64,000 bases of DNA, taken from the sequence record MW598459; one strand, given 5' to 3'. Position 1 is the first letter of the stretch. Each line of letters begins with the position of its first letter. Positions 54,125-64,000 of the stretch are shown in pieces. This stretch comes from Escherichia phage vB_EcoM_RZ. The notes below the pieces were generated by a model. The model saw only the letters and a list, made by a program, of their open reading frames with translations. It was not told where the DNA came from and did not search any database. A program made the position numbers and the translations under genes.

Positions 54125-54151
54125 ATATTAGCATAAAATTTTTAAAGCAAT
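54125..54151 (-). promoter_or_regulatory. Middle promoter with MotA box (TGCTTTA, 12 nt spacer, TAATAT) upstream of rnh
   Basis: Minus strand reads tTGCTTTAaaaattttatgcTAATAT. Confidence 0.5.
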
Positions 54152-54158
54152 ATAAATA
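54151..54158 (+). promoter_or_regulatory. T4-type late promoter TATAAATA upstream of gene 34
   Basis: Exact TATAAATA about 30 nt upstream of the gp34 ATG; the divergent rnh middle promoter shares the same intergenic region. Confidence 0.6.
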
Positions 54159-54188: not shown

Positions 54189-57100
54189 ATGGCCGATATT
54201 TTAAAACCAGCATTCAGAGCAACATCCGGTCTCGATGCTGCTGGTGAGAAAGTCATTAATGTCGCAAAAGCTGATTACTCAGTTTTATCAGACGGCGTTA
54301 ACGTAGGTTTCTTTATAGAAGAAAACACAATTCAACAATATGATGCGACGCGCGGATACAAAAAGAACTTTGCGGTTATTAATGATAACCGTATTTGGGT
54401 TGCTCAACGTGATATTCCGGCACCAGCTGGAGCATTTACCCCTCAGTATTGGTTAGCAACTCGTACTGACCCTAAATGGGAAACTGTTGCATCTCCAACT
54501 CGTCAGCTTAGCTCCGGGGAATTTATCGCAGTCGACTCAGCTGCAAGCTTTACCACATTTACATTGCCTCCGAACCCGACTGATGGTGATACCATCGTTA
54601 TTAAAGATATCGGCGGTAATACCGGTTATAATGAAATTAAAGTTCAATCGAGCAATGTGCCTGGTCAAGGTAACCAAAAGATTGTTCGCTTTGGTAATCA
54701 GTATTCAGAAGTTTTAATTACCAAACCATTCTCTTATAACATGCTTATCTTTTCAAACCGCTTATGGCAATTTTGGGAAGCAGGTAACGAAGAACGTGGT
54801 ATCAGAGTAGAACCGTCGACCGGACGTTTCCATGCACAAGCTGGCGACTTTATTATGCGTCGTTATACAACTGGTGCACCGATTACTTTCATTCTTCCTA
54901 AGTATGCAAACCAGGGTGATATTGTCAAATCTGTTGATATCGATGGTATGGGACCAACGTTCCACCTGATGGTTGAAACCTTTGACACTAGTTCCAGTCT
55001 TGATAAAGCTGGTCAGCATCAAATGGAATTCCGTACCACAGGTGATGGTTTCTTCGTTTATGATGCTGCCGAAAAACTCTGGCATGTTTGGGACGGTGAT
55101 TTTAAAACTCGTCTGCGCGTTATTCGTGACAGCGTTAAACTTTTACCAAACGAAAGCGTCATTGTATTTGGCGAAGATAACTCAACTCCGGCAACGATTA
55201 ATATCGATTTACCGACTGATGTTTTACAAGGTGACATTGTTAAAATTGCATTGAACTATCTCCGTAAATCGCAGACTGTTAATATAAGAGCTGCTGTTGG
55301 CGATAAGATTGCATCTGACATTAAATTGCTGCAATTCCCTAAACGTTCCGAGTATCCACCAGATACAACTTGGGTGTTGGTTGATTCATTGACCTTTAAT
55401 GGCAACATCAGTTATACTCCGGTTATTGAATTATCATATGCAGAAGATACAGTGTCTGGAACAAGTTATTGGGTTGTCGCTCAGAACGTCCCGACTGTCG
55501 AACGAGTTGACTCATTAAATGATTCCACGCGCGCACGTCTTGGTGTTATTGCTCTGGCAAACCAGACTCAGGCAAACGTTGACCATGAAAATAACCCAGA
55601 GAAAGAACTTGCAATTACCCCTCAGACTTTGGCCAACCGTGTTGCTAAAGAGAACCAACGAGGTATTGCCAGAATCGCAACGACTGCTCAAGTAAATCAG
55701 AACAGCGATTTTGCATTTGTTGATGATGTAATTATTTCTCCGAAAAAACTCAATGAACGTACGGCAACAGAAACGAGACGTGGGCTCGCAGAACTCGCCA
55801 CACAGCAAGAAACCGATGCAGGTGTAGATGATACCACAATTATCACTCCGAAGAAACTACAAGCGCGCCAGGGCTCAGAATCGCTATCTGGTATTGTAAC
55901 TTACGTTTCAACAACCGGTGCAACTCCTGCTGCTTCGCGTGAATTAAATGGTACAAACGTTTATAATAAAAATACGGTTAATCTGGTTGTTTCTCCGAAA
56001 GCTCTTGACCAGTACAAAGCTACTTACACCCAACAAGGTGCGGTTATTCTTGCGGTTGAAAGTGAAGTAATTGCTGGTACTTCTCAATCTGGATGGGCAA
56101 ACGCAGTCGTTACTCCAGAAATGTTACATCGCAAAACTGCTCTTGATTCCCGTATCGGTTTAATCGAGATTGCAACTCAAGTGGAAACAGATGCAGGAAC
56201 CGATTATACCAGAGCTGTGACTCCTAAAACGTTAAATGACCGTAAAGCATCAGAAACGTTAACCGGCATAGCCGAGATTGCTACGCAATCAGAATTTGAT
56301 ACTGGAACTGATGATACTCGTATCTCAACTCCATTAAAAATTAAAAATAGATTTAATAATACTGCTCGTACTTCTGTTAATGCATTAAGTGGTTTAGTAG
56401 AAACAGGGACGCTCTGGGACCATTATAGCCTGAATATTCTTGAAGCAAATGAGACTCAGCGTGGTACAGCAAGATTAGCAACTCAGGGTGAAGTCAATAC
56501 CGGCACTGACGATAAAACAATCGTTACTCCGCTTAAATTGATGTCGAAAAAAGCCACTGAAAATGCCGAAGGTATTGTTCGCATCGCGACAAACGCAGAA
56601 GCAACAGCAGGCACATCAAAAGTCTTGGCCATCAGTCCGTCAGCGCTGAAATATATTGCACAAACGGAAACAACCTGGGAAGCATCTGAAACCCTACGTG
56701 GATTTGTTCGTTTATCTTCTGGTACAGCTACTTCGGCTGCAACTACAACGACTGGTGCAGGATTTACATATGCAAATGGTGTGTATACTCCGGACCCAAG
56801 TAAACTGGTTAGCTATTCAAAATCTGGTTATGCAGTTTCACCTTACGAATTAAACCGCGTATTGCAAAACTTCTTACCGATAAATGCGATGGCTGTTAAT
56901 GCTGAAAAACTGGATAACCTTGATTCGACCCAGTTTATTCGTCGTGATATTGCTCAGACTGTTGAAGGTGTGTTAACTCTTACTAAACAGACAAATATAT
57001 CTGCTCCGGTTGTATCGACGAGCACTGCAGTGTTTACTGATGTAACGGCTGGCACTTCGACGTTCGGAACTGTGAACGTTGTTAACGGAACTAACAAGTG

Positions 57101-58145
57101 GAAAATCACCGCTCCTTCCACCGGAACGACAATGACTATTGGCGATACGACTAACGTATTGACATTAAACACCGCCTCGGGTAATGCTGCTGTACTGAAC
57201 AACCTTAGCGCCGGAAATGATGTTCAAGCCAAAAATAATTACGTTCTAAATGGTCGTACTATCGCAACCACAACGGGTGAAGCTTCTGGTGCAACTCTGG
57301 CTCTGGGTGATAACTCGCAGAATTTAGTGCTTAAAACTCTTGATGCTGGTAATATCATAGCAAATGGTGGCGGTGCATTTAAAGTCCTGACCGAGAAAAA
57401 CGCTGTTGAGATTGTAGATAGAAACTTTGTTAACCAAGGCGGTGATACAATGTCTGGTGTGCTCCATGTGAATGCTCCGGTCCGTGTATTCGGTACGAAA
57501 CCAAGTCTTATCGCACAAGCTCCGACTGCAGATACTGTTGGCTTCTGGTCTGTCGATATCAATGATGAACCGACTTATAGTCAGTTCCCTGGTTATTGGA
57601 CAATGAAGTTAAAACGTCAGGTAAACATTGATACAGTTCAAACTAAACCTGCTGGGGTAACTGATGAAGTTTGGAATGCTTCTGGTTGGTTAACTGAAAA
57701 TGGAACTTTCGCCTCGCCTGTTATTCGTTATCGTAATGACGATGGTACACTCGGTGATGAAGTATTAGGTAGCTCTGGCCAAAAACTGCGCGGAACCTGG
57801 TTTGACTATTCGGTTCGTGATAAACAAATTAAATATCCTGGTACATTAACTCAGTTTGGTAATACGCTGGATTCATGCTATCAAGATTGGGTTTGTTATC
57901 CAACTGGATTGAACGGTGGTACTATTCGTTATACTCGTACATGGCAGAAAAATAAATCTGCATGGACGACTTTCGCAATGGTTTACACCGCGGATAACCC
58001 TCCGTCTGCAGAGGATGTTGGTGCATTACCGGCCGACAACACAACAATGGGGAACTTAACCATTCTCGATTGGTTGCGTATCGGTAACGTGCGCATCATC
58101 CCAGACCCGACCACTAAATCCGTTAAGTTTGAATGGGTTGAATAA
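54189..58145 (+). CDS. 34: Long tail fibre proximal subunit gp34
   Basis: 1318 aa (T4 gp34 is 1289 aa); repetitive beta-rich fibre sequence; position after rnh. Confidence 0.9.
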   Translation: MADILKPAFRATSGLDAAGEKVINVAKADYSVLSDGVNVGFFIEENTIQQYDATRGYKKNFAVINDNRIWVAQRDIPAPAGAFTPQYWLATRTDPKWETVASPTRQLSSGEFIAVDSAASFTTFTLPPNPTDGDTIVIKDIGGNTGYNEIKVQSSNVPGQGNQKIVRFGNQYSEVLITKPFSYNMLIFSNRLWQFWEAGNEERGIRVEPSTGRFHAQAGDFIMRRYTTGAPITFILPKYANQGDIVKSVDIDGMGPTFHLMVETFDTSSSLDKAGQHQMEFRTTGDGFFVYDAAEKLWHVWDGDFKTRLRVIRDSVKLLPNESVIVFGEDNSTPATINIDLPTDVLQGDIVKIALNYLRKSQTVNIRAAVGDKIASDIKLLQFPKRSEYPPDTTWVLVDSLTFNGNISYTPVIELSYAEDTVSGTSYWVVAQNVPTVERVDSLNDSTRARLGVIALANQTQANVDHENNPEKELAITPQTLANRVAKENQRGIARIATTAQVNQNSDFAFVDDVIISPKKLNERTATETRRGLAELATQQETDAGVDDTTIITPKKLQARQGSESLSGIVTYVSTTGATPAASRELNGTNVYNKNTVNLVVSPKALDQYKATYTQQGAVILAVESEVIAGTSQSGWANAVVTPEMLHRKTALDSRIGLIEIATQVETDAGTDYTRAVTPKTLNDRKASETLTGIAEIATQSEFDTGTDDTRISTPLKIKNRFNNTARTSVNALSGLVETGTLWDHYSLNILEANETQRGTARLATQGEVNTGTDDKTIVTPLKLMSKKATENAEGIVRIATNAEATAGTSKVLAISPSALKYIAQTETTWEASETLRGFVRLSSGTATSAATTTTGAGFTYANGVYTPDPSKLVSYSKSGYAVSPYELNRVLQNFLPINAMAVNAEKLDNLDSTQFIRRDIAQTVEGVLTLTKQTNISAPVVSTSTAVFTDVTAGTSTFGTVNVVNGTNKWKITAPSTGTTMTIGDTTNVLTLNTASGNAAVLNNLSAGNDVQAKNNYVLNGRTIATTTGEASGATLALGDNSQNLVLKTLDAGNIIANGGGAFKVLTEKNAVEIVDRNFVNQGGDTMSGVLHVNAPVRVFGTKPSLIAQAPTADTVGFWSVDINDEPTYSQFPGYWTMKLKRQVNIDTVQTKPAGVTDEVWNASGWLTENGTFASPVIRYRNDDGTLGDEVLGSSGQKLRGTWFDYSVRDKQIKYPGTLTQFGNTLDSCYQDWVCYPTGLNGGTIRYTRTWQKNKSAWTTFAMVYTADNPPSAEDVGALPADNTTMGNLTILDWLRIGNVRIIPDPTTKSVKFEWVE

Positions 58146-58153
58146 GAGGTAAT

Positions 58154-59284
58154 ATGGAAAAATTTATGGCAGAGTTTGGACAAGGATACGTCCAAACGCC
58201 AGTTATATCAGAAAATAATGCCGTTAAATTTAAAATGAGTATAGCAGGGAGCTGTACTCTTTCCACGGTGAAATCGTATATCAAATTTCAGGATGAACAA
58301 ATCGGACCAACTACTTTTGGCAATGGTTTGACTCTATTAGAAATTGATACAACTACGAATAAAATTGTTAACACGAAAAACTATTCATTGACCAGCACAC
58401 ACGATGTAATCAGTCAGGCATTAATCACCTTTGTGGAATCTGTTCCAGCTGGAAGATTGATTGCTTTTATTTCTTCTGGGAAATTAAATGCTTCACAGAC
58501 ATTAATTGACTGGTTTCGTAAATGCGGTTCAAGAGCATTCCCCGAGAAATGGTTGATTGATAAAGTTGATACATCGTACTCGGCTTTTTACATAACCGGC
58601 CGGAACGTAATTGTTTCGGAGCATGTTAAGTATAATGACGGAATGTTAGTTGAGGATGTTTCAACTCCGCTTGAAGTCATTTATGATACCTTTAGTGATA
58701 TAGGAGCAACAGGCTATCCTGTGCGCATAACGGAAGACGAGAGCACGTATTCATCAACAGGTGATGGAACATCAACCGCGATTAGAAGGTTCCCCACAGA
58801 GGACCTAGTGACTCCTATGAGCACATATAACCTTTTACCTTTGGATGTGCTTTACCTGAAGTTTCAGATGTCATTTGACGCTGAACTGAAAGCCGCCGGG
58901 ACTGTAAGGACTTCGGTTCGATTCTTTAAAAGTCCTAGCACTTCTCCAATATCAAATACAAACATCGATATTGCAGCGAACGTTCCAGCTGGTGCATGGG
59001 CAAGTTTCGAAAGATATGTCGAGATTCCAGCGGGAGCCGATGGCTTTACAGTAGTAACATCAAGGACTGTAGCTGTGGGAACTGGGTCAATACGTAATAT
59101 TGTTATTGGTGAGATAACCAGAGGTGACTCGGCATTCAAACCAGCTGAATTTGGTGTCAACGGCATAAGGATGTCATATGCAAACGATGCAACAAATACA
59201 GGCAATACAATTGTAACATTACCAGATGCACAAGCTCCGAGAGCCGGCAAGATATACGCAGCCGAACTACGAGAAAAACAATAG
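58154..59284 (+). CDS. 35: Long tail fibre hinge connector gp35
   Basis: 376 aa (T4 gp35 is 372 aa); synteny 34-35-36-37. Confidence 0.85.
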   Translation: MEKFMAEFGQGYVQTPVISENNAVKFKMSIAGSCTLSTVKSYIKFQDEQIGPTTFGNGLTLLEIDTTTNKIVNTKNYSLTSTHDVISQALITFVESVPAGRLIAFISSGKLNASQTLIDWFRKCGSRAFPEKWLIDKVDTSYSAFYITGRNVIVSEHVKYNDGMLVEDVSTPLEVIYDTFSDIGATGYPVRITEDESTYSSTGDGTSTAIRRFPTEDLVTPMSTYNLLPLDVLYLKFQMSFDAELKAAGTVRTSVRFFKSPSTSPISNTNIDIAANVPAGAWASFERYVEIPAGADGFTVVTSRTVAVGTGSIRNIVIGEITRGDSAFKPAEFGVNGIRMSYANDATNTGNTIVTLPDAQAPRAGKIYAAELREKQ

Positions 59285-59308: not shown

Positions 59309-59316
59309 TATAAATA
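59309..59316 (+). promoter_or_regulatory. T4-type late promoter TATAAATA upstream of gene 36
   Basis: Exact TATAAATA directly after the terminator and about 35 nt upstream of the gp36 ATG. Confidence 0.6.
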
Positions 59317-59351: not shown

Positions 59352-59999
59352 ATGGCAGATTTAAAACTAGGCTCAACAGCTGGAGGTTCGGTCCTCTGGC
59401 ACCAGGGTAATTTCCCATTAACACCAGTCAGTAATGACTTATATTTCAAAACTTATAAAATTTATTCCGAATATAACAAGCCACAAGCAGTCGATAACGA
59501 TTTCGTTTCTAAAGCTCTTGGCGGTAATTATAAAGCAAACGTATATTTCGAACAAGGCCTGACATTTAACGATTCAAATGGTTACGGGATTAAGTTGGGA
59601 GCGAGAACAGGTGGTGCACCATTTACTGCATCTTTCCGTATTAAAGGGCCGTTTGGATTTGAGACTGAAACGGGAACACCATTCGTTATTTTTGACCCTG
59701 ACACTACGACGGGAGTAAAACGTCTTATTGTTATGGGTGATACGTTAGCTCGACAGATTTATGATGAAACAGGGCGTGTATTTTCTCCAGGGAATACTCC
59801 GTCAAAAGCTCAAGTTGGTCTTGGTAATGTAACTAACCAGCAACAGGTGGAACTAAATAATAGTACATTGCAAACAATGACAGGTAACTTGTCAGCACCT
59901 AATTTCTTCTCTAGGAACCCAGCATCAGACCCGGCTCACGTGCCCCGTTTTGACCAAATCGTTCTTAAAGACTCCGTACAAGATTTTGGATATTATTAA
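59352..59999 (+). CDS. 36: Long tail fibre distal connector gp36
   Basis: 215 aa (T4 gp36 is 221 aa); synteny. Confidence 0.85.
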   Translation: MADLKLGSTAGGSVLWHQGNFPLTPVSNDLYFKTYKIYSEYNKPQAVDNDFVSKALGGNYKANVYFEQGLTFNDSNGYGIKLGARTGGAPFTASFRIKGPFGFETETGTPFVIFDPDTTTGVKRLIVMGDTLARQIYDETGRVFSPGNTPSKAQVGLGNVTNQQQVELNNSTLQTMTGNLSAPNFFSRNPASDPAHVPRFDQIVLKDSVQDFGYY

Positions 60000-60007
60000 G
60001 AGGCATT

Positions 60008-63000
60008 ATGGCTACTTTAAAACAAATACAATTTAAAAGAAGTAAGGTTGCCGGCGTTCGTCCGGCGCCAACAGTTCTTGCTGAAGGTGAACTGGCTATC
60101 AACCTGAAAGACCGCTTACTTTTTACTAAAGATGACACCGGCGCCATCATCGACCTTGGCTTTGCTAAAGGTGGTAATATTGACGGTAACGTTATTCATA
60201 AAGGAAATTACAATCAAACCGGCGCCTATACTATAGCCGGAGATATTTCACAAACGTCTGGACATTTTACTACTACTGGTAATATAACAGCAAATGGTGA
60301 TATTACTGCAAAAGCCCGTTTAATGACAGATAACGGTGAAGTTCTTGTACGAGGTACAGGAACCACTCATGTTCGATTCCAGGATTTGGCTGATGCTCGC
60401 GAAAGAGGTATAATTTATTCTCAAAACCGTACTGGGGATACCAAGCAAATCTTGAACGTTCGTGTCCAGGATTATACTAATTCAACATCTAATATTTTTG
60501 CATTCAACGGTGACGGTTTATTTTATGCTCCATCTATTTCCGGTGGAACATCAATAAAATCTCCGGTAATTTATACTAATACCGTTGATACCGGTAATAA
60601 ATCAGCTCTTGATTATGATATATCTTCATTGGCAAATAATAATCCTGCAAGTTCAAGTGCAACATCTATTAACTATCTTAGAATAAGTAGACATGCTGTC
60701 GATGGAATTAGGTATCGTGAACTTAATAATGTAAATGGTATTTCATGGCATTCTATTTCTACAGCCGGAACAGCTAAGTATCTTTGGTCATTTAATGCAG
60801 ATGGAGATGTCAAAACATCAAATTCTCTTTCCGTTGGCCTACCTGGGGATAGCTCAGGATACTCAACATTAGGTCCGTCTGCTATCGCACTTGGCGACAA
60901 TAACACAGGTTTGAAATGGAGACAAGACGGCCAGTTCCATATAGTTAATAATGGAGCTTATACTTTACTTACAACTCCGACTGAAGTTACAAGCCTTAAA
61001 CAGTTAGTTGCGGGTTATTCAACCAACGGTTCTGATTTAATTCTCCCTACAGCCCAAAACTATCCATTAGTTATTGTTAATACTACTAATGATAAAAACG
61101 GCTTCGGTGACGGTCAAACTCTTTTAGGATATCACCAAAGCGGCAAATATCACCATTATTTTCGTGGCAAAGGTGTAACAAACGTTAACACCGATGGTGG
61201 GTTGTTGGTTACTCCTGGTAACGTTGAAGTCCGTGGTGGTTCGGTTAATATTGATGGTCTCAGTAATGCTTCGACAGTGCTTTTTAAAGGAAATACAACA
61301 GGAAGTAGTTCAGTTGATAATATAGAGCTCAAAGTTTGGGGTGACACTTTTAATACGGTAGATGGTTCTCGTAAAAACGTAATGGAAACATCTGATGCTA
61401 CCGGCTGGATGCATTATATTCAACGAACTACAGCAGGTAAAGTCGAATCCTATTTAAATGGTACCATGAATGTAATTGAAGGATTGACTGTCAATCAAGA
61501 TACATCCTTAAAACGCAATCTGTATGTTTCCAATGAAATTAAAGTTCGCGCTGCTAGTGGTCTTCGTATTTGGAACGATAAGTACGGTGTTATTTTTCGA
61601 AATTCGGAAGACCAGCTGCATATTATCCCGACCAATGTTAATGCCGGCGAAAGTGGCGGATTAGGCCCATTACGCCCATTAAGTATTACGTTAGACACTG
61701 GTCAAGTTAAAATCCCTAATTTAGCGGCTGACCAAGTTTCTTTTATTGCTAACAGCGTATTAGAATTCCCTGCTGGTAATGGTGCATCTTATGCCAACCA
61801 GAATACGACTAAAGCTCCGTTGTATCAAACACTTGGTGCAGCAACCCAAGCATTCTATCCAATTACCAAGCAGAAAAATACAGTTTCTAATGTAACTATT
61901 ACTCAAGGTATGGACCGCGCTACAAGCGAATACCGAATTGTTGCTCAAGGCGATTTGCTTGGTGATGGTGATGCTACAGGATTAAAATATTGGCGCTTTA
62001 CCAAAGAAGGTAACTTCATGGCTCAGAACCGCTTATATGCCGGTACAGCTTATATGAATACCGATGGTAATATTGCAGGTTCTATTTGGAAAAAGTATAG
62101 CGGTGCTACTAACCTTGATGCAGCAGTGAATACTCGTGTCGGTAAAAGTGGTGACACAATGACCGGGCGTTTAACTCTTAATGCAAACTCGGATGCTATT
62201 GTTATTAACAGTGCTGCAACCGAATCTGGTTATATGAAAGGACAAAAAGCTGGTATTGATAACTGGTATGTAGGTAACGGCGGTGCCGATAATGCTGTAT
62301 CAATTTATAGTTTTCAAACTAATTCAGGCGTAAATATTAATGCAGACGGCGATATTGCTTTAAACCCACAAGGTTCAGCCACTTTTAATTTTAATAGGGA
62401 CCGTCTTTTTATTAATGGCTCTGTCTGGGCATCCCACCAGGCTGGCGATTGGGGAAACCAATGGAAGCAAGAAGCACCGGTATTTGTTGATTTTGGTAAT
62501 GTTGGTAATGATAGTTATTATCCGATTATCAAAGGAAAATCTGGTATTACTAACGAAGGATTCATATCAGGTGTAGATTTCGGTATGCGTCGTATCACTA
62601 ATAACTGGGCGCAAGGTATTATTCGTGTAGGTAACCAGGAAAACGGTTCTGACCCACAAGCTATCTATGAATTCCACCACAATGGAGTTCTGTATGTTCC
62701 TAACATGGTTAAAACTGGAGCAAGATTATCAGCTGGTGGTGGTGACCCTGTATGGACCGGTCCGTGTCTTGTTATTGGTGATAATGATACAGGATTAGTT
62801 CATGGTGGTGACGGCCGAATCAATATGGTTGCAAATGGTGCACATATTGCATCTTGGTCTAGCTCTTACCATATCCATGAAGGTCTTTGGGATACTCATG
62901 GTGCTTTGTGGACTGAAACAGGAAGAGCTATTATTTCTTTTGGTCATTTAGTCCAACAAAGTGATGCCTATTCTACATATGTTCGAGATGTTTATGTCCG

Positions 63001-63337
63001 TTCTGATATTCGTGTTAAAAAAGACCTTGTTAAATTTGAAAATGCTTCTCAGAAGCTTTCTAAAATTAACGGTTACACTTATATGCAGAAACGTGGCCTG
63101 GATGAAGAAGGTAATCAGAAATGGGAACCTAACGCTGGTTTAATTGCTCAAGAAGTTCAATCTATTTTACCTGAATTGGTTGAAGGCGACCCTGATGGCG
63201 AAGCTTTACTTCGTTTGAACTATAACGGTGTAATTGGTTTAAATACAGCTGCAATCAATGAGCATACTGCAGAAATTGCAGAACTTAAGTCAGAGATTGA
63301 AGAACTTAAAGCATTAATTAAATCATTGTTAAAATAA
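60008..63337 (+). CDS. 37: Long tail fibre distal subunit gp37 with a C-terminal intramolecular-chaperone-like domain
   Basis: 1109 aa; N-terminal part gp37-like; the last ~120 aa contain an SDIRVKKDL motif followed by a coiled-coil ([22 protein letters not shown]), resembling auto-cleaving chaperone domains of other phage fibres. Confidence 0.88.
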
Positions 63338-63342
63338 TAAGA

Positions 63343-63358
63343 GGGGCTTCGGCCCCTT
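63343..63358 (+). other. Stem-loop (GGGGC-UUCG-GCCCC) between genes 37 and 38
   Basis: GC stem with UUCG tetraloop, no clear T-run; overlaps the GGAGG ribosome-binding site of gene 38. Confidence 0.4.
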
Positions 63359-63368
63359 GGAGGTTTAT

Positions 63369-64000
63369 ATGGCAGTTCAAGGACCGTGGGTAGGGTGGTC
63401 TGCAGTAGTTAATACTGGACAAAATTGGATGGGCGGCGCCGCCCAGCGATTGAGAATGGGTATTCCGTTTTGGATGAGTAATATGAACGGTCGGTCTGTT
63501 GAAGTAATTCACACACTTGGAGCAGACCATAACTTTAATGGGCAATGGTTTAGGGACCGCTGTTTTGAAGCAGGTGCTGCCCCTATTGTGTTTAATATCA
63601 CAGGTGATTTAGTATCTTATACTAAAGATGTTCCATTGTTCTTTATGTATGGTGATACTCCTAATGAATATGTTACTTTGAATATTCATGGTGGGGTTCA
63701 TATGTGGGGACGTGGTGGTAATGGTGGGACCCGTGTTTGGATAGCAGGTACAAATGGTGGTGATGTAATTCAAAACGACATTGGAGGCAGACTCCGTATC
63801 TGGAACTATGGCGTTATAGCTTCAGGTGGTGGCGGTGGTGCCGGATGTGCTTCAAATAACTCTTGGCTTGCAGCTGGTACTGCCGGTGGCGGCGGCGGTA
63901 GACCATATGGATTAGGTGGTGCTAATGGTGCCGTAAACCCAGGTGGCAACGCTAGTTATACAGGCCCTGGTGGCGGCGGTAGCTTTGGCGGTCAGTGGGG
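63369..64000 (+). CDS. 38: T2-type gp38 receptor-recognising adhesin with glycine-rich motifs (3' end outside the window)
   Basis: Open frame from the ATG at 63369 to the window edge; N-terminus matches remembered T2-type gp38 (...[59 protein letters not shown]); poly-Gly stretches (GGGGGAG, GGGGG) follow. Confidence 0.8.

Follow-up and report, generated by a model that had tools for sequence, protein, structure and literature searches.

The end of the 64,000-nt window (the whole stretch of Escherichia phage vB_EcoM_RZ DNA, record MW598459, that was analysed) very probably encodes, as judged from its sequence, a long-tail-fibre distal tip module of the T2/S16 type, belonging to a T-even coliphage that resembles Gaprivervirus. 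This reading embraces both a gp37 that would cleave off its own chaperone and a gp38 that would act as the receptor-binding cap, with cleavage, capping, and receptor binding each argued by analogy with relatives. Domain membership, motif conservation, gene order, and a mosaic pattern are supported directly. Such a tip module is already known and forms part of textbook T-even phage biology; its architecture, cleavage mechanism, and loop-swapping logic have been published for close relatives, to which the present sequences are 76-96% identical. The window is 93-96% identical in DNA to the Gaprivervirus-like coliphages MN01, UPEC07, and TH22/44. The region to which an earlier note on this DNA drew attention, 62900-64000, spans the chaperone domain and the part of gp38 that lies in the window, and gp37 itself starts at 60008.

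The gp37 C-terminus

Gene 37 and the features of its 3' end are as follows.

60008..63337, + strand: gene 37, long tail fibre distal subunit precursor, 1109 aa (open reading frame; 94% identical to MN01 gp37)
62987..63001, + strand: DVYVR, aa 994-998, predicted last residues of mature gp37 and putative gp38 docking face (alignment)
63002..63334, + strand: predicted intramolecular chaperone and self-cleaving domain (Peptidase_S74), aa 999-1109 (Pfam; 6f45_A, E=1.3e-34)
63002-63004, + strand: Ser999 (SDIRVK motif)
63017-63019, + strand: Lys1004 (SDIRVK motif)
63239..63334, + strand: C-terminal amphipathic helix with heptad repeat (heptad count; helix in single-sequence model)

Pfam families matched by gp37 comprise Peptidase_S74, Gp34_trimer, and, weakly, gp37_trimer. 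The Peptidase_S74 match (PF13884) covers aa 999-1058 and profile positions 1-57 of 58, scoring 46.4 bits (E=5e-12) against a curated cut-off of 22 bits, and the SDIRVKKDL motif that had been picked out from the letters alone falls inside it (aa 999-1007, nt 63002-63028). The chaperone domain as a whole occupies the extreme C-terminus of the protein, aa 999-1109 of 1109, and ends in a helix. At its start, within SDIRVK, a serine and a lysine stand five residues apart (S999 and K1004), a pair that we take to be the catalytic dyad of the Peptidase_S74 domain, as in endosialidase and MYRF. The S, D, and K of SDxxxK do not vary among eight diverse phage fibres or in AR1, RB69, T6, and Kha5h, a sample drawn across Tevenvirinae, Proteus, Vibrio, and T5-like phages (S31, D32, and K36 in the numbering of alignments A1 and A3), and SDIRVK aligns with SDRRIK of S16, ADLRAK of MYRF, and SDERHK of GA-1. 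The deposited MYRF chain carries alanine at the serine position.

The domain has homologues in 1443 phage records. When a profile built from eight phage C-termini was searched against the PDB, it matched S16 gp37, the MYRF self-cleaving domain (1e-12), and 8jov (2e-7), together with the neck-appendage chaperone domain of phage GA-1 (3gud, E=0.007), whose chain starts at SD. The earlier note had suggested comparing the gp37 C-terminus with the chaperone domains of endosialidases and T5 fibres; in this profile search the GA-1 domain was recovered, the T5 L-shaped fibre was marginal (E=0.07), and the endosialidase structure (endoNF) was not recovered. The more general proposal, that gp37 ends in an intramolecular chaperone of the type seen in endosialidases and in Peptidase_S74, is borne out by the Pfam match, by the profile matches to S16 gp37, MYRF, and GA-1, and by the invariant S-D-x3-K. 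A terminal coiled-coil had been proposed as well, and the last 32 residues do carry a heptad repeat, with I, L, V, or M at seven of nine a/d positions in the best register and scores of 0-5 of 9 or 10 positions in the remaining registers. A single-sequence AlphaFold2 model of aa 969-1109 is poor (mean pLDDT 48), and the one stretch that it predicts as a helix with pLDDT 82-90 is this C-terminal one.

Predicted maturation of gp37

In S16, gp37 is described as cleaving itself at the aligned motif DLNVS^SDRRIKK, releasing 113 aa and exposing the docking face for gp38 (PMC7917993, citing Dunne 2018), and for T2 and T6 the gp37 C-terminus is given as proteolytically cleaved (PMC3157838, listing Drexler 1986 on T2). 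By analogy, the cut in the present protein is predicted at DVYVR^SDIRVKK, with 111 aa released. DVYVR aligns with DLNVS of S16 and with DVYIR of T6, Kha5h, and the fPS phages (alignments; PMC7917993), and the S16 structure suggests that it may be where gp38 docks. The sequence of events would then be as follows. gp37 would be made as a precursor of 1109 aa, of which aa 999-1109 would aid the folding and register of the three gp37 chains; after trimer formation the Ser999/Lys1004 dyad would cut between Arg998 and Ser999, and the chaperone would depart. The new C-terminus (...DVYVR) would present a hydrophobic face, into which the N-terminal domain of gp38 would plug by means of its conserved tryptophans, and gp38 would stay on the virion as the receptor-binding cap.

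Gene 38 and its attachment domain

Gene 38 lies directly downstream of gene 37 (stop at 63337, start at 63369), and the order g37-g38-holin is common to MN01, AR1, T6, RB69, and Kha5h.

63369..64000, + strand: gene 38, T2-type tail-fibre adhesin, 5' 632 nt, 210 of ~260 codons (Pfam, PDB, MN01)
63369..63485, + strand: gp38 N-terminal attachment domain, aa 1-39, with W7, W20, and W35 (Pfam, alignment)

The reading frame runs off the end of the window, so that the final ~50 residues, among them the remaining motifs and the conserved C-terminus, lie beyond 64000. Its translation matches the Pfam families GP38 (PF05268; 214.9 bits, E=1.6e-63, profile positions 1-167 of 218) and Gp38_N (PF21721; 73.4 bits, E=1.4e-20), each with a cut-off of 25 bits, as well as the solved adhesins 9v85 (E=1.8e-70; identical in sequence to AR1 gp38) and 6f45_D of S16 (E=9.4e-42), and it is 95% identical to the 260-aa gp38 of MN01. 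Like that of Peptidase_S74, these family scores lie well outside the range of chance matches. Glycine makes up 24% of the 210 residues in the window and 36% of aa 110-210. The family matches, the matches to solved adhesins, and the alignment thus uphold the view that the gene after gp37 is a glycine-rich T2-type gp38 rather than a T4-type chaperone. W7, W20, and W35 recur unchanged in all six phages compared; the role ascribed to these tryptophans in attachment comes from the S16 structure as reported in PMC7917993.

Glycine-rich motifs and variable segments

Four glycine-rich motifs and three variable segments fall within the 210 residues of gp38 encoded in the window.

63708..63728, + strand: glycine-rich motif GRGGNGG, aa 114-120, first of the specificity domain (G114, R115, G116, G117, N118, and G119 invariant)
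63729..63755, + strand: variable segment TRVWIAGTN, aa 121-129 (unconserved columns, alignment A2)
63825..63848, + strand: glycine-rich motif GGGGGAGC, aa 153-160 (G153-G157 invariant)
63849..63884, + strand: variable segment, aa 161-172 (alignment)
63885..63923, + strand: glycine-rich motif, aa 173-185 (G173-G177, R178, P179, G181, and G184 invariant)
63924..63962, + strand: variable segment, aa 186-198 (alignment)
63963..63980, + strand: glycine-rich motif GPGGGG, aa 199-204 (composition runs, alignment)

The full-length gp38 of MN01 carries the complete set of motifs and the TIYGSWL end. That variable segments sit between conserved glycine-rich motifs, as had been anticipated, is evident in the alignment and agrees with the published model, in which gp38 has this arrangement and the variable segments set host range (PMC3157838). 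Of the 244 phage records that match, 60 were sampled; the point at which DNA homology stops is in most cases gp38 aa 102-109 or a position within the three glycine-motif stretches. The glycine motifs, conserved in DNA, may double as crossover points for the exchange of loops between phages. The variable loops, borne on these motifs, would recognise an outer-membrane protein, and it is proposed that they therefore set host range.

Alternative readings

The C-terminal domain of gp37 could in principle be a degenerate, chaperone-like remnant that stays uncleaved on the fibre, and the model of its fold is a poor one (pLDDT 48). Yet the Ser-Lys dyad and every other invariant position of the domain are intact, and were the domain to stay uncleaved, it would sit on the face that PMC7917993 describes as the gp38 docking site of S16. 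The domain is moreover 95-96% identical in AR1 and RB69, and 176 phage records have it at 95% identity or more, a degree of conservation that points to strong selection; the remnant is accordingly rated very unlikely.

A different objection concerns gp38, which might be only an assembly chaperone in the style of T4, absent from the virion, with the tip of gp37 binding the receptor. Several database records do label homologues 'distal long tail fiber assembly catalyst', a name that derives from T4, and the N-terminal ~40 residues form a separate Pfam domain, Gp38_N. Against this stand the match of gp38 to the GP38 adhesin family (E=1.6e-63), its similarity to solved adhesins of the S16 and AR1 types, a note in the RB69 record that gives gp38 as the adhesin within the T2 subfamily, and the fact that gp37 finishes in a removable chaperone domain rather than a receptor-binding tip, all of which leaves the T4-style role extremely improbable. 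Nor is there appreciable likelihood that the downstream protein is one of the gp38 variants of EcS1, Roth20, and Pm5461, which combine the same N-terminal plug with another, non-glycine C-terminal domain. In other Straboviridae these variants come after gp37 genes that carry a chaperone, and they have the N-terminus MAVxGPxVGSS...TG..W in common with the present protein, but they contain 8-14% glycine and are 166-175 aa long, whereas the 210 residues in the window already hold four glycine-rich motifs and match GP38; this candidate was rejected. The reading retained is that of a self-cleaving gp37 capped by a glycine-rich adhesin.

Regulatory elements around genes 36-38

Three candidate elements flank or separate the genes.

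59309..59316, + strand: T4-type late promoter motif TATAAATA, upstream of gene 36 (motif scan)
63341..63358, + strand: hairpin with a C(UUCG)G tetraloop, lying after the g37 stop and before the g38 ribosome-binding site (fold)
63359..63363, + strand: Shine-Dalgarno sequence GGAGG of gene 38 (sequence; 5 nt before the ATG at 63369)

The promoter motif TATAAATA has 20 matches in the window against 4 expected. The match at 59309 lies 36 nt before the gp36 start (59352), and the scan found none between g37 and g38; the motif at 59309 is likely the start of a g36-g37-g38 late transcript, the three genes then forming an operon. The hairpin has a stem of seven pairs in a -14.1 kcal/mol fold of 63330-63375 and is kept in MN01, Kha5h, EcS1, and Roth20, in Kha5h with changes on both sides; its energy is unexceptional relative to shuffled sequences (z=-1.66). 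It was considered as a terminator and rejected, as it has no T run on the + strand and the terminator scan flags the opposite strand only.

Comparison with known fibre tips

The S16 gp37-gp38 tip (PDB 6F45), whose gp37 is the nearest solved relative of the chaperone domain, resembles the present one in its self-cleaving C-terminal chaperone (cleavage being predicted here) and in a gp38 that joins an N-terminal tryptophan plug to a polyglycine-rich specificity domain, and the alignments to S16 reach E=1.3e-34 for gp37, including VSSDRRIKKD of S16, and E=9.4e-42 for gp38. S16 belongs to another genus, however, and differs in its gp37 upstream of the last few residues and in its variable segments; since the latter differ, the receptor may differ too. 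Salmonella OmpC is named as the S16 receptor in the title of Marti 2013, listed in PMC7917993.

The T2/T6 type (Drexler 1986; Trojet et al. 2011, PMC3157838) likewise has a C-terminally cleaved gp37, as is predicted here, capped by a gp38 of ~260 aa in which glycine-rich motifs alternate with hypervariable segments, and the same g37-g38-t order. The chaperone domain of T6 and Kha5h is of a different subtype, 30-34% identical, but the site DVY[IV]R|SD.R.K is the same, and gp38 is 63% identical to that of T6 and 44% identical to that of Kha5h. Far closer are the AR1/PP01-type phages and RB69, in which the gp37 tip and chaperone are 95-96% identical and gp38 is 76% (AR1) and 83% (RB69) identical, although their variable segments after the first two glycine motifs are different. 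These phages are placed in other genera (Tequatrovirus, Mosigvirus), and the tip cassette is therefore common across genera.

Domains of the endosialidase type (GA-1 3GUD, the T5 fibre, MYRF) share the position at the fibre C-terminus, the Ser-x4-Lys start, and the helical end, and the chaperone domain shows 42.7% identity to the C-terminal fibre end of an Epseptimavirus, a T5-like phage. Where they differ is that removal of the domain here would, by analogy with S16, uncover a docking site for a separate adhesin; to our knowledge endosialidases and T5 have no separate capping adhesin. With T4 the window shares the placement of these genes in the late tail-fibre cluster g34-g35-g36-g37-g38. 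T4 gp38 serves as a chaperone and is not part of the virion; its N-terminus is related to that of T2-type gp38. The T4 type is marked by a gp37 that has no removable chaperone domain and by a short gp38 free of glycine-rich motifs. Family and composition set the present genes apart from it: gp37 ends in Peptidase_S74, the chaperone domain, and gp38 is a glycine-rich member of the adhesin family (Pfam), whereas T4 gp37 carries its own receptor-binding tip (PMC3157838). No sequence feature in the window contradicts a tip of the T2/S16 type.

Receptor and host range

AR1 and PP01 use OmpC. Among solved gp38 structures the closest, 9v85, is of the AR1 type, and its variable segments differ from those in the window; therefore, no receptor is assigned. 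By default one of the usual porins is to be expected. In the searched phage collection, only MN01 and TH44, and with them TH40 and JS98, have the same combination of variable segments over the whole in-window stretch, the last two matching gp38 at ~85% DNA identity. All four are uncharacterised phages. Because the combination is confined to these few, gp38 may conceivably recognise a receptor other than those of T-even gp38 proteins (OmpC, OmpF, OmpA, Tsx, FadL), although this is considered unlikely. More broadly, the tip module decides which bacteria the phage adsorbs to, and it is thus the part to work on when host range is to be predicted or re-engineered, for example through exchange of gp38 loops.

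The long-tail-fibre gene cluster

Genes for a T-even long tail fibre, all on the + strand, are clustered in the final 10 kb of the window:

54189-58145, + strand, gp34 (1318 aa)
58154-59284, + strand, gp35 (376 aa)
59352-59999, + strand, gp36 (215 aa)
60008-63337, + strand, gp37, the distal subunit (1109 aa)
63369 to beyond 64000, + strand, gp38 (210 codons inside the window)

The T4-type late-promoter motif TATAAATA lies directly upstream of gp34 (54151-54158) and gp36 (59309-59316), and a motif scan of the window found none between gp37 and gp38. The window has 20 copies against about 4 expected; the majority are on the + strand in its first 15 kb. From 62400 to 64000 the DNA is 93.4% identical over its full length to Escherichia phage MN01 (Gaprivervirus), and MN01, UPEC07, TH22/44/55 and similar phages share 95-96% identity with a 20-kb mid-window stretch; the window therefore comes from a phage closely related to coliphages sequenced before. 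The order of gene 37 (with its chaperone domain), gene 38 and holin gene t recurs in MN01, Kha5h (K3-like), AR1, T6 and RB69.

Elsewhere in the cluster, aa 57-128 of the hinge protein gp35 (58322-58537) match Pfam ILEI (PF15711) at 29.1 bits, barely over the cut-off of 27, which we take to be the published 'GG domain' common to phage gp35 and FAM3/POMGnT1 proteins. In mid-gp37, aa 452-560 (61361-61687) score 30.7 bits (cut-off 27, E=5e-7) for Pfam Gp34_trimer, the domain through which the proximal fibre subunit trimerises, and one domain type is thus common to the proximal and distal half-fibres.

A chaperone-family domain at the gp37 C-terminus

By sequence, the gp37 C-terminus clearly belongs to the endosialidase-type chaperone family. 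SDIRVKKDL (aa 999-1007, nt 63002-63028) begins a match to Pfam Peptidase_S74, 'chaperone of endosialidase', over aa 999-1058 (46.4 bits, gathering score 22, E=5e-12), and the final 32 residues carry a heptad repeat with I/L/V/M at 7 of 9 a/d positions in the best register; the other registers have 0-5 of 9 or 10. Among solved structures, the last 130 residues best match gp37 of Salmonella phage S16 (6f45_A, E=1.3e-34), in an alignment that takes in S16 VSSDRRIKKD and extends to the terminal helix, with weaker matches to the tail fibre of another phage (8jov) and to 7dc3, the part of myelin regulatory factor that cleaves itself. By tblastn, the 111-residue domain is found in 1443 phage records and is at least 95% identical in 176; among the matches are fibres of T5-like Demerecviridae (42.7% identity, E=5e-19), T1-like phages, and Vibrio and Synechococcus myoviruses. 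The same gp37 tip and chaperone recur in AR1 (Tequatrovirus) and RB69 (Mosigvirus), whose proteins are 95-96% identical to those here; T6 and Kha5h have another chaperone subtype (30-34% identity) with the same junction, DVY[IV]R then SD.R.K.

In an alignment of C-termini from eight phages (the window, MN01, Kha5h, T5-like OSY-STA, EcS1, Klebsiella Roth20, Proteus Pm5461 and Vibrio CZ01), SDxxxK keeps its S, D and K in all eight, and G, Y, G, A, Q and LPE beyond it are likewise invariant. A profile built from this alignment was searched against the PDB.

PDB matches of the eight-phage C-terminus profile
6f45_A, S16 gp37, E=3.7e-36
7dc3_A, MYRF self-cleaving domain, E=1e-12
8jov_1, putative tail fibre protein, E=2e-7
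3gud_A, phage GA-1 neck-appendage chaperone domain, chain starting SDERHK, E=0.007
8hqz_d, T5 L-shaped fibre, E=0.07

In this comparison, which the earlier note called for, membership of the endosialidase-type family is clear. T5 proper is linked weakly by direct sequence similarity, and no endosialidase chain was among the profile's PDB matches.

The gp38 adhesin and its mosaic structure

Glycine makes up 24% of the gp38 reading frame and 36% of aa 110-210, with runs that include GPGGGG. The protein matches two Pfam families, Gp38_N (E=1.4e-20) and GP38, 'phage tail fibre adhesin' (E=1.6e-63). Its 210 residues align with 9v85 (E=1.8e-70), a solved GFP fusion carrying a gp38 identical to that of AR1, and with S16 gp38 (6f45_D, E=9.4e-42). 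Compared with full-length relatives, they are 95% identical to MN01, 83% to RB69, 76% to AR1, 63% to T6 and 44% to Kha5h gp38. Across these six phages W7, W20 and W35 are invariant, as are the glycine motifs GRGGNG, GGGGG, GGGGGRP.G..G and PG, and the intervening aa 121-129, 161-172 and 186-198 vary in sequence and length. In the S16 protein, according to PMC7917993, conserved N-terminal tryptophans are prongs entering gp37 pockets. The motif pattern agrees with the glycine-rich motifs flanking hypervariable receptor-binding loops described in PMC7917993 and PMC3157838. Across all 210 gp38 residues, the variable segments match uncharacterised phages only. The earlier note, which had proposed a chaperone-like gp37 C-terminus with a terminal coiled-coil, a T2-type gp38 after it and variable loops between glycine motifs, was right on all three counts, with a receptor role for the loops probable by analogy.

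The ends of DNA homology support modular exchange in gp38. In 60 of the 244 phage records matching 63002-64000, homology ran to the window end in 3 (TH44 at 95% identity; TH40 and JS98 at about 85%), stopped right ahead of the first glycine motif, at gp38 aa 102-109, in about 25, and stopped inside the first three glycine-motif stretches (63708-63728, 63825-63848, 63885-63923) in 30; the other 2 were a record end and a weak match. End-points are approximate and the sampled records mutually related, so the pattern is supportive, not statistical. At a finer scale, 11 of 210 positions differ from MN01, 9 of them in the N-terminal 40 residues, and the attachment domain is AR1-like at aa 11-20 and RB69-like at aa 21-33, which suggests a mosaic N-terminal domain. 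The nine differences cluster in the attachment domain at aa 4-40 (63378-63488). The gp37 tip that would receive gp38 is 97-99% identical to MN01.

An intergenic hairpin

After the gp37 stop codon and ahead of the gp38 Shine-Dalgarno lies a C(UUCG)G tetraloop hairpin, GAGGGGC-UUCG-GCCCCUU (63341-63358), also present in MN01, Kha5h, EcS1 and Roth20; the Kha5h stem has both-sided changes, G-C to A-T and A-T to G-C. With no T run behind it on the + strand, it resembles an element of mRNA stability or processing more than a terminator. Such hairpins are reported from T4 intercistronic regions (Tuerk 1988).

Proposed assembly and function of the fibre tip

According to PMC7917993, which cites Dunne et al. 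2018, S16 gp37 ends in a 113-residue intramolecular chaperone that cleaves itself off at DLNVS^SDRRIKK, and the authors predict an equivalent cut in their T2-like Yersinia phages, DVYIR^SDGRLKI. PMC3157838 (Trojet et al.) reports proteolytic cleavage at the gp37 C-terminus in T2 and T6, and its references include Drexler, Riede and Henning 1986, on T2 gp37 processing. The Ser-Lys dyad of the domain is intact here, and alignment predicts a cut at DVYVR(998)^S(999)DIRVKK, releasing 111 residues. By comparison with S16, T2 and T6, the domain would assist trimer folding and then cut itself from gp37 between R998 and S999, the newly exposed end would dock gp38, and gp38 would stay on the virion, where its variable loops may bind an outer-membrane protein.

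In some other Straboviridae (EcS1, Roth20 and Pm5461), a chaperone-bearing gp37 is followed by a gp38-like protein of 166-175 aa with the same MAVxGP.VGSS...TG N-terminus as in the window, without a polyglycine domain and with 8-14% glycine:

EcS1 locus L004, 1868-3029, two such genes in tandem
Roth20 locus L005, 1843-2370
Pm5461 locus L006, 1775-2290

The window's gp38 is clearly of the polyglycine kind, and together with gp37 it has the published, standard architecture of T2-type tail-fibre tips. What these gp38 proteins conserve is the N-terminal plug; the specificity domain can be exchanged.
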